IMG/VR virus record: IMGVR_UViG_2778261381_000006
Location: 1 to 24,768 of that record
Direction: 5' to 3' (one strand)
Source: a virus
Lineage: Duplodnaviria > Heunggongvirae > Uroviricota > Caudoviricetes
DNA length: 24,768 bases
Shown: positions 17,240-18,020 of the stretch, in pieces
Numbering within the stretch: the stretch's first letter is position 1
Layout of the letters: each line of letters starts with the position of its first letter
Position numbers and translations under genes: made by a program
Notes under the pieces: generated by a model
Told to the model about the DNA's origin: nothing
The model's input: the letters and a program-made list of their open reading frames with translations, nothing else
Database searches by the model: none

Positions 17240-18020
17240 TTCAGCACTGCCAGTATTTATTACTCAGCAGTGCCAATCGCGGCGGTGTTAGTTTTTGCCA
17301 ATAAACGCACCGCTACTTGCACTTTTCGTTAGTGCCAGACGTTTTCGACTTCGCTCAATAGAAGGCAAAATCTTTAAGTAGATGATGTTTCTGAGGACAG
17401 CACCTACTTTGTAATTTACATAATGCGGTGTATGGAATCATTTGTTGTGAAAACAGGCACCAATGGCAACAGTGGTTAAACCTACACAACAATCCTGTCT
17501 TCACAACGTTGAGGCCACTACCCCGATTGAATGTTTGCCCAACATGTTACATATCAACGTTCGCCAGTATCTCTGTGAATAGAACCTTAGAATTGATAAA
17601 AATGTAATGGCCTCAACGTTGTGTGCTGGCTAACCATACCAGCCGGGCTACGTCGCCGCTTTTTAACCCAGTATAAACGACATAATTGAACAAAATGACG
17701 TAACAGGATGGGCGGTCAGTGGCTAAGAATCCGGGAGTGATATGGAGTTGGAAATATACCGACCGCCCATTCTGTTACTTCATCGGAGAGGGCATGGGTG
17801 GTGCCGTATCATGCCCTCTCCTGCGTTCTGCAATCACACTCGCTCAGTGTGTCCCATTTCGGTAACGAGGCTGGAAACTGACCTCGCTGGTGTTTGGCTT
17901 ATTAGGCTACTGCCAGATAGACTTCTTCGTTTGCACTTGTATTTAAGTTCAAACAGTCGCGTCTCAACGAAAACAAAGCCATCTTATACATAAAAGATAA
18001 GTAAGTAAATACTTATCGTG
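17240..18020. other. ORF-poor, highly structured region (candidate ncRNA, tRNA-operon leader, or origin/partition-like region)
   Basis: No credible ORF. Several long perfect or near-perfect inverted repeats: 17444-17457/17494-17507, 17502-17516/17609-17623 (15 bp), 17703-17718/17761-17776 (16 bp, 1 mismatch), 17785-17796/17810-17821 (12 bp), plus GATAAGTA-agtaaa-TACTTATC at 17995-18016. Confidence 0.4.

Follow-up and report, generated by a model that had tools for sequence, protein, structure and literature searches.

The window analysed here is a stretch of 24,768 nucleotides (IMG/VR virus record IMGVR_UViG_2778261381_000006, positions 1 to 24,768; Caudoviricetes) from an SSU5-like phage-plasmid, and it contains a 0.8-kb region (17240 to 18020) beside a cluster of tRNA genes. 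Read on the minus strand, this region opens with a module (~17975-17785) that appears to derive from transfer-messenger RNA (tmRNA, the product of ssrA), as it has a resume signal, a 10-codon tag frame closed by stops, and downstream pseudoknots. A 5' arm antisense to the tmRNA of the host precedes the frame, and the tRNA-like domain of a tmRNA is missing. The finding is real and far more interesting than a spacer, and the tag frame is the key to the element. An earlier, first-pass annotation had described the region as essentially free of open reading frames (ORFs) and rich in long inverted repeats, without a tmRNA tag frame; the repeats and the want of ORFs hold good, and the statement about the tag frame does not.

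Trans-translation is the main ribosome-rescue and quality-control pathway of bacteria, and some phages depend on it. In the reading put forward here, to which we give slightly less than an even chance, the RNA docks on the host tmRNA, masks the host template and supplies a tag template of its own. The broader proposition is that host tmRNA is the target of a parasitic RNA family widespread in phages and phage-plasmids, with antisense docking at the resume codon leading to the appending of a phage-specified tag, and this we regard as plausible but rather below an even chance. The arm, the tag frame and the missing tRNA-like domain suggest interference with ribosome rescue, or its re-programming, by many enterobacterial phages.

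The tag frame and its conservation

The frame occupies 17899..17934 on the minus strand and reads GCA AAC GAA GAA GTC TAT CTG GCA GTA GCC TAA TAA, that is ANEEVYLAVA followed by two stops; the first-pass annotation, which missed it, had probably read the plus strand only. It is preceded by an A-rich single-stranded linker (17935..17950, minus strand) that ends in AUACAAGU ahead of the resume codon. The A at position -4, equivalent to A86 of tmRNA, is invariant in 59 aligned modules, at least 90% of which have U at -5; U85 and A86 set the frame on E. coli tmRNA (PMC2481249). The element therefore has an alanine resume codon, a tag frame, a stop and the upstream frame-selection A.

Homologous frames occur at more than 100 loci, with tags such as ANEDTYLAVA in phage SSU5, ANEEMYLAVA in HK620 and the Klebsiella phage Carvaje (one stop in each case), ANDNVFLAVA with two stops in Mooglevirus, ANDDLMMVAA in P1-like phages and ANDNTFLAVA in Vi01-like phages, compared with ANDENYALAA for the E. 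coli SsrA tag. Depending on the lineage the frame ends in TAA, TAG or TGA, never in a sense codon, and the variable columns are mainly the third positions of codons 3, 4, 5, 6, 8 and 10. As far as sequence comparison can tell, this is the conservation pattern of an RNA with a translated frame. The loci were collected from IMG/VR with two pattern scans, which together gave more than 110 loci with the module; the first returned 126 loci, 105 of them with the module, and its module-type tags follow the consensus AN-[ED]-[EDNTS]-x-[YF]-LAVA, to which the second scan added one tag ending in LAAA and copies with TAG or TGA as the stop. Both patterns fixed AAACACCAG after the stop, one also fixing the tag start and the other the tag end, so the tag diversity seen is a lower bound.

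Structure of the module

The anatomy of the module is solid. The 3' half of the tag and its stops are closed in a hairpin (17887..17916, minus strand; CUGG 17916-17913 with CCAG 17890-17887) analogous to helix 5 of tmRNA, and two pseudoknots follow. Pseudoknot A (17852..17886, minus strand) pairs CGAGG 17886-17882 with CCUCG 17870-17866 in stem 1 and UUCCA 17876-17872 with UGGGA 17856-17852 in stem 2; pseudoknot B (17823..17851, minus strand) pairs CACAC 17851-17847 with GUGUG 17839-17835 in stem 1 and GCG 17843-17841 with CGC 17825-17823 in stem 2. Pseudoknot 1 (PK1) of tmRNA is absent, and the antisense arm stands in its place.

Covariation was counted on a hand-drawn structure in 41 aligned modules of lambdoid and Felix types, for the tag hairpin, both stems of pseudoknot A and stem 1 of pseudoknot B. 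Altogether 98.1% of the cells are paired, compared with 33-40% in controls whose partners were slid by 1-3 columns, and double-sided changes affect seven pairs (69 cells), an outcome reached by 0/500 shuffles. In this set compensatory changes fall in 3/5 pairs of stem 1 and 2/4 pairs of stem 2 of pseudoknot A, and in 2/5 pairs of stem 1 of pseudoknot B, which also contains an invariant G.U pair that is possible on the minus strand alone. The tag hairpin is invariant in all copies, so covariation neither supports nor contradicts it. For stem 2 of pseudoknot B, where insertions are misaligned by MAFFT, the pairing was judged by eye only (GCCC/GGGC, GGCCCUGA/UCAGGGC(C) and GACCCUGA/UCAGGGU). Copies of the SSU5, P1 and Vi01-like classes keep the same architecture with different stem sequences; among SSU5-type variants UUCCA/UGGGA of pseudoknot A becomes CUCCA/UGGAG, and divergent SSU5-like copies have CAGAC/GUCUG in stem 1 of pseudoknot B. 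The minus strand of 17775-17978 folds better than all of its shuffled versions (z -3.46, 0/200 shuffles).

An arm antisense to host tmRNA

The 5' arm (17951..17974, minus strand) consists of two blocks, which in a duplex prediction with E. coli ssrA form two helices of 10 bp each. GUUUUCGUUG (17974-17965) would pair with ssrA 96-105, covering tag codons 3-6, and GCGACUGUUU (17960-17951) with ssrA 82-91, which takes in the U85/A86 region and the first two bases of the resume codon. All classes have the blocks GTTTTCG and GCGAC in their arms, and the 5' motif that they share, GUUUUCGU, is exactly complementary to ACGAAAAC, which encodes Asp-Glu-Asn in the tag of E. coli ssrA. Lambdoid arms go further and align with antisense ssrA 68-106, comprising the 3' strand of PK1 (UAAAAAGCCGCAAA), GUCGC with the resume codon, and codons 1-6. 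The sub-blocks of the host antisense sequence that are kept differ by class, and their order is the same.

Smith-Waterman local alignment of the lambdoid arms gave scores of 27-41 against shuffle means of about 15. The lambdoid and Felix arms were equalled by 0/1000 shuffles (z 5.8-11.8; Felix type, z 6.4), and the arms of P1 and Kuttervirus (Vi01-like) by 0/500 shuffles, so that four classes (lambdoid, Felix, P1 and Kuttervirus) show significant conserved complementarity. Host ssrA is a better match for the arm than the remainder of the same RNA in 84/84 unique modules; on this count, pairing of the arm with the tag inside the phage RNA was rejected. Elsewhere in the 0.8-kb region no significant similarity or complementarity to ssrA was found. 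The part of the module outside the arm is too diverged for blastn to find chromosomal ssrA with it, and 258/5426 E. coli genomes match, almost all on plasmids. The target stretch of ssrA is nearly invariant across Enterobacterales, which fits the host range in which the module was seen.

Proposed docking and re-templating, and antisense inhibition as a rival

The hijacking of tmRNA is a well-motivated hypothesis, which can be set out as a series of steps. Starting at a promoter near 18000, transcription would run leftward on the minus strand to form the tRNA-operon leader, an array of structured RNA modules of which the first is the tmRNA-like one. Because this module has no tRNA-like domain, it could not enter a ribosome alone. 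The arm may anneal to host tmRNA from the frame-selection nucleotides through the resume codon to the first tag codons, and in other phage classes over the 3' strand of PK1 too, and the host template would be masked. The phage RNA would thereby be tethered to the alanine-charged tRNA-like domain of the host and to SmpB, much as the coding piece of a two-piece tmRNA is, and its linker and resume codon would emerge 16-22 nt past the end of the duplex, the normal place of PK1. Rescue of a stalled ribosome could then resume on the phage template, giving chains that end in AANEEVYLAVA, not AANDENYALAA. Such re-templating is the only reading found that uses the frame, the arm and the missing tRNA-like domain together.

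Several points weigh against it. The arm of the window is not significant by alignment (303/1000 and 131/500 shuffles) and its duplex energy (z -1.1) is not significant alone; its two 10-bp helices are reached by 1/500 shuffles, in a G.U-aware two-helix statistic that was chosen post hoc. Shuffled arms rich in U pair well with the A-rich region of ssrA too. The SSU5-type arm is itself U-rich, and comparing its duplex energy with shuffles is uninformative; for the class of the window, an antisense function is suggested mainly by homology with the other classes. The near-invariance of the host target leaves hardly any variation with which an arm could covary, and a search for arms adapted to the ssrA of Pasteurellaceae returned host ssrA genes only. 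A count of wobble-preserving against disruptive substitutions in the arms gave no clear signal either way. An intermolecular duplex of 20-39 bp might be cut by RNase III instead of serving as a tether, and the last step presupposes that a ribosome loads a template held at the resume region by base pairing alone. The weakest point of the model is the benefit of a tag swap, which is unclear because the phage tags resemble ordinary ssrA degrons, with the AAN-acidic-x-aromatic part and the A/V-A C-terminus retained. What the sequences show is the anatomy, the covariation, the codon-like conservation, the missing tRNA-like domain and the antisense similarity; transcription, annealing in the cell, use of the template and a benefit to the phage belong to the proposal.

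The main rival is antisense inhibition, in which the arm acts as an inhibitor or sponge that blocks or destroys the host template, for instance through RNase III, and trans-translation or tagging drops while the tag frame stays untranslated. The same antisense evidence applies to it. Tagging by tmRNA can impair the propagation of phages and plasmids in some settings (PMC6207430), and a phage RNA consisting of the tRNA-like domain (TLD) only has been reported to inhibit tmRNA (PMC4131195). Nevertheless, an inhibitor leaves unexplained why the A86-equivalent resume signal, the 10-codon frame with its third-position variation and the interchangeable stops are kept in all classes, and we consider it unlikely. 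Re-templating would account for these features by the use of the frame.

Absence of a tRNA-like domain

A further alternative is that the module is one part of a true phage tmRNA, of two-piece or permuted form, with a tRNA-like domain that is encoded at another site or has become too aberrant for recognition. ARAGORN called no tmRNA in the window and, over the 105 loci, called one in two Mooglevirus loci only, as a permuted tmRNA with the Mooglevirus tag. Further points in favour of this alternative are that the best sub-threshold Rfam family is tmRNA_permuted and that hairpins with a T-arm stand before or after the module in several lambdoid and P1-like loci. The Mooglevirus call was rejected as a chance assembly, as its tRNA-like pieces, 640 nt upstream, overlap tRNA-Lys, the 5' piece being inside that gene. 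The Rfam matches (tmRNA_permuted, 26.2 bits against a gathering score of 47; beta_tmRNA, 14.4; RF00023, 11.7, model positions 83-140) cover the tag region only. The covariance scan that the first-pass annotation had proposed thus gave no family at the gathering threshold, the module being absent from Rfam 15, and did give sub-threshold tmRNA matches on the minus strand.

The components of a tRNA-like domain, namely a 7-bp acceptor stem with G3:U70, a T-arm and a 3' CCA, were not found. In the window, SSU5 and HK620 a scan for T-arms found none within ~900 nt of the module apart from those of true tRNAs, in agreement with the first-pass annotation, and a search for G3:U70/CCA acceptors gave no conserved candidate. 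A separate acceptor piece was found neither in the window nor in HK620, in a scan confined to the loci around the module. The predicted RNA starts a few nucleotides from GUUUUCG, a block invariant apart from rare variants, where promoter-like sequence precedes it, so in the SSU5, Felix and some lambdoid types there is no room for a 5' acceptor strand. An acceptor-like closure by flanking TGCTCTT...AAGAGCA strands was also rejected, since the arms covary with the partner in the neighbouring hairpin and not across the module (loci L033 and L041). As it has no tRNA-like domain, the element falls outside tmRNA proper, whether one-piece or two-piece, and a genuine phage tmRNA is decidedly improbable.

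Two side observations concern tRNA-like sequences near the module. In lambdoid, Klebsiella and P1-like loci (L005 ~2400-2500, L011, L018, L121 and L305 ~2105-2195), some of the hairpins carried with the module have a canonical T-arm (e.g. GAGGGTTCGAATCCCTA), a D-arm-like hairpin and a long acceptor-like stem but no anticodon arm, and are called neither by ARAGORN nor by Rfam. These are tRNA-like or TLD-like mini-RNAs and possible decoys for SmpB or for tRNA-targeting enzymes. In the Citrobacter phage Mijalis (L003), ~640 nt upstream of the module, there is an orphan T-arm with a 3' acceptor strand and GCCA (GAAGGTTCGATTCCTTCACCCTTCGCCA), followed 4 nt on by the complementary 5' strand GAAGGGT and a D-arm-like sequence, in the order of a circularly permuted tRNA-like RNA; this is the piece that ARAGORN used for its permuted tmRNA.

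Distribution and genomic context

Plasmid MF554642.1 matches the queried stretch at 100% identity and the E. coli phages Cyrano and CMS-2020a match it at ~94%, and parts of it share 79-83% identity with Salmonella phage SSU5, with plasmids of Enterobacter, Citrobacter and Klebsiella, and with Yersinia pestis pMT1. In a sensitive blastn search of the region against phage genomes, the plasmid relatives and unrelated phages match at window ~17832-17978. GenBank has the tmRNA-like module in 766 phage records, Felix O1 itself among them, and 773 plasmids (the matching PLSDB entries) also carry it; in none is an RNA annotated there, and in several phage records a short coding sequence for a 'hypothetical protein' is annotated across it. 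Carriers include SSU5-like, P1-like, HK620 (lambdoid), Felix O1-like, Vi01-like and N4-like phages, and their hosts are Escherichia, Salmonella, Klebsiella, Enterobacter, Citrobacter, Yersinia, Erwinia and Serratia. The module was also seen in Vi01-like (Ackermannviridae), N4-like/G7C-like, Erwinia, Serratia and Pantoea phages, and in a record named 'Vibrio phage pYD38-A'; Salmonella phage 38, a Kuttervirus (L306), has it too.

Wherever tRNAs are nearby, the module is on their strand. It lies within the tRNA cluster in Felix O1-like and Mooglevirus phages, adjoins tRNA-Ser in Carvaje and adjoins tRNAs in P1. In HK620 it stands between the late promoter/qut site and the late terminator. In the window the region is flanked by a small minus-strand ORF (18027-18317) on one side and by minus-strand genes for tRNA-Asn (17163-17237), tRNA-Tyr and tRNA-Thr on the other, and in SSU5-like loci the distance from the CTGG of the tag frame, taken as the module anchor, downstream to tRNA-Asn is 616-680 nt. 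The tRNA-Tyr gene, present in the window (cluster 16991-17237) and in many IMG/VR relatives, is missing in phage Cyrano (L001), and in SSU5 the sole tRNA called near the module is tRNA-Asn.

On the Y. pestis KIM plasmid pMT-1 (L304, 75400-78306) the module is intact, with the tag ANEDTYLAVA; the leader ends after its I2 hairpin (described below), exactly at the start of the caf1R/F1-capsule locus, and tRNAs are absent from the 2.9-kb stretch examined. Two small RNAs from Y. pestis RNA sequencing on pMT1 (sR082 and sR083) were considered as transcripts of the module and rejected, as they come from unrelated loci.

A probable leader of the tRNA operon

The first-pass annotation had placed the region upstream of a minus-strand tRNA cluster and had proposed a promoter and leader of a tRNA operon, structured non-coding RNAs or a replication or partition element. 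The first two of these proposals are supported and the third is not. The region is directly upstream of, and co-oriented with, tRNA-Asn, tRNA-Tyr and tRNA-Thr, and the whole stretch is contiguous and co-oriented with tRNAs in all SSU5-like relatives. A promoter-like region on the minus strand (17981..18015) has a putative -35 element TTTACT (18009-18004), a 17-nt spacer and a putative -10 element TAAGAT (17986-17981), from which transcription would start at ~17975. It is conserved in 42 unique SSU5-type sequences, the Klebsiella types having TATGAT, and at the equivalent place Felix types have TTGACA-17-TATAGT and some lambdoid types TTGACA-17-TAGATT; a scan for promoter and terminator consensus sequences made no call in the region. 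Strand, contiguity with the tRNAs and the predicted upstream promoter thus support a tRNA-operon leader as the context of the module.

The palindrome TAAGTAttTACTTA is found at 17998-18015, 14101-14118 and 21521-21538, always between genes. Its general form, TA(A/G)GTA-N6-TAC(T/C)TA, overlaps the predicted -35 element and has four matches at up to three mismatches against 0.02 expected, and it is probably an operator for a phage regulator common to several promoters.

A repeat search of 17200-18060 found five inverted repeats (arms of 10-26 nt, 88-100% match) where long ones had been reported. All of the following lie on the minus strand unless stated otherwise. The terminal hairpin I4 (17785..17821) has a perfect 12-bp stem (17785-17796/17810-17821, 100%) flanked by CAGG and CCGAUG, and sits where lambdoid modules have 'CAGGUAAGAGCA...UGCUCUUUCCG' hairpins. 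The long hairpin I1 (17695..17783) has 26-nt arms (17695-17720/17758-17783, 88%), and a small conserved hairpin (17625..17644), GCUGG-UAUGGUUAG-CCAGC in the minimum-free-energy fold, has a loop that resembles a tRNA D-loop. Hairpins I2 (17502-17521/17604-17623, 20-nt stem, 95%) and I3 (17444-17457/17494-17507, 14-nt stem, 93%) share a CACAAC/GUUGUG base, and hairpins closed by CACAAC...GTTGTG recur. The fifth repeat (17290-17299/17364-17373; 10 nt, 90%, no strand assigned) falls in the distal leader (17238..17443), which by folding and alignment comprises a conserved block, AUGAUUCCAUACA, and three predicted hairpins and extends up to the 5' end of tRNA-Asn, where RNase P cleavage would set the 3' end of the leader.

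The comparative alignment that the first-pass annotation had proposed did reveal covariation. The arms of I4 change together among relatives (GGAGGGAACAU/AUGUUCCCUCC, GGAUAGGGCAUG/CAUGCCCUAUUC, GGUAGGGCAU/(A)GUGCCCUUACC), as do those of I1 in divergent SSU5-like copies (AACAGAAUGGGCGG/CCGCCCAUCCUGUU versus AACGAGAUGGGUGG/CCGCCCAUCUCGUU). The small hairpin becomes GCUGA/UCAGC in one relative, I2 changes from GAGGCC/GGCCUC to GAGAUC/GAUCUC and GAGACC/GGUCUC, and I3 from AAGACAGG/CCUGUUUU to GCCACGG/CGUGGCC. I4, I1, the small hairpin, I2 and I3 are therefore conserved with compensatory changes among the E. coli, Salmonella and Klebsiella types. Compensatory changes in every major stem, together with the invariant G.U pair of the minus strand, strongly support structured non-coding RNA.

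Folding of the rest of the region, some 550 nt, is stronger than that of shuffled sequences on both strands and stronger on the minus strand: for 17238-17790 the minus strand reaches -185.9 kcal/mol (z -5.37, with 0/100 dinucleotide shuffles as good) and the plus strand -168.5 kcal/mol (z -4.50). The view that the region has no credible ORF is upheld. Its mechanical ORFs of 48-83 aa have no Pfam match, and they are broken in close relatives by indels that are not multiples of three, such as a 13-nt indel in the loop of I4. Rfam, at the gathering score and at E-value level, returned only tRNAs, cspA and the sub-threshold tmRNA matches. The cspA match is a full-length one to the cspA thermoregulator family of 5' untranslated regions (RF01766, 185.7 bits, E 9e-50) at window 3704-4122 on the plus strand, and the phage-plasmid carries the gene of a cold-shock protein together with this RNA thermosensor.

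In lambdoid and P1-like phages the module belongs to arrays of similar long hairpins closed by CACAAC...GUUGUG, whose interiors vary and sometimes hold a T-arm. The downstream hairpins may be co-transcribed modules that are freed by tRNA-processing nucleases. Hairpin modules continue within the tRNA cluster of the window: between tRNA-Ser and tRNA-Thr, at ~16880-16990 on the minus strand, a long hairpin of I2 type (CAACATTGAGAACA/TGTTCTCAACATTG) with GTGGTG/CACCAC-like closing ends is closely similar to one found downstream of the tRNAs in a P1-like phage (L305 ~2330-2430).

The region could also be a passive leader or spacer, its stems serving the processing or stability of the tRNA precursor and its frame being the decaying relic of a captured ssrA. 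The constant position upstream of tRNA-Asn, the co-orientation with nearby tRNAs and the varying size and content of the hairpin interiors are in keeping with such a role. Against it, the module is kept in phage groups that shared no other DNA similarity in these searches, among them HK620, where no tRNA was called within the 5-kb locus examined. A relic, moreover, would not retain a frame, a stop, the A at -4 or an arm that tracks host ssrA amid divergence beyond the reach of blastn, and we give this explanation little credence.

A DNA-level cis element (a replication origin, or a partition or recombination site, with cruciform-prone repeats) is very improbable, for all the long inverted repeats, the AT-rich right end and the neighbouring ligase, primase and helicase genes, as there are no iterons or direct-repeat families (just two weak two-copy direct repeats) and no GC-skew switch, the pseudoknots and G.U pairs are possible on one strand only and that strand folds better, and the same module occurs in the late leader of the lambdoid phage HK620, in the tRNA clusters of virulent Felix O1-like phages and beside the tRNAs of P1.

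Comparison with known systems

The RNA described here apparently went unannotated in classic phages (P1, Felix O1, HK620, Vi01-like and N4-like) and in the SSU5/pHCM2/pMT1 plasmids of E. coli, Klebsiella, Salmonella Typhi and Yersinia pestis. Finders of tmRNA that demand a tRNA-like domain miss template-only relatives. If the RNA binds SsrA, it would add a new layer to the phage-host conflict at the ribosome, and if the frame is translated, the identity of a cell's degradation tag would depend on its resident mobile element. Either would bear on the use of ssrA-type degrons, on antibiotics that target tmRNA and on strains for phage therapy.

The tRNA cluster of phage T4 encodes small stable RNAs (species 1 and 2, rnaC/rnaD) that are released by tRNA-processing enzymes and whose function was long unknown. 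Like the present module, they are stable RNAs other than tRNAs inside a phage tRNA operon; to our knowledge they have neither a tag frame nor an anti-tmRNA arm. The short single-stranded 5' arm complementary to a host RNA is also reminiscent of the trans-acting antisense small RNAs of phages and plasmids, which ordinarily lack a conserved tmRNA-style frame, and we know of no natural antisense regulator of tmRNA.

With one-piece tmRNA (SsrA, RF00023) the module shares the alanine (GCA) resume codon, the A-rich linker with an A86 equivalent, an ANDxxY-type tag of E. coli length, stops placed in a hairpin and pseudoknots downstream. It differs in having no acceptor stem, D-loop analogue, T-arm, CCA or PK1, in its length of only ~200 nt, in an Rfam score far under the gathering score and in an arm that is antisense to host tmRNA. 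The two-piece tmRNAs of alpha-proteobacteria, cyanobacteria and some phages (RF04321, RF01849-51) offer a parallel for the proposed joining of a coding RNA to a tRNA-like part by base pairing alone. Real two-piece tmRNAs, however, come from one gene and their pieces pair via the acceptor stem and P2, whereas no acceptor piece was found here and the proposed partner is the complete tmRNA of the host, engaged at its template region.

A full-text literature search gave no tmRNA-like or antisense-tmRNA phage RNA of this kind and no exact tags; subscription-only literature lay outside it, and a prior description is possible. The phage tmRNAs in the tmRNA database papers come from mycobacteriophages and Bacillus phage G only, in addition to the TLD-only RNA of mycobacteriophage DS6A, a tmRNA-like RNA that is thought to interfere with the host system (PMC4131195, PMC11915505). 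Both that RNA and the present module are phage-encoded partial tmRNAs, and they are mirror images, DS6A keeping the tRNA-like domain only and the module the template domain only. If the re-templating mechanism is true, the module would be the first template-only ('MLD-only') relative of tmRNA and the first case of re-templating of tmRNA in trans.

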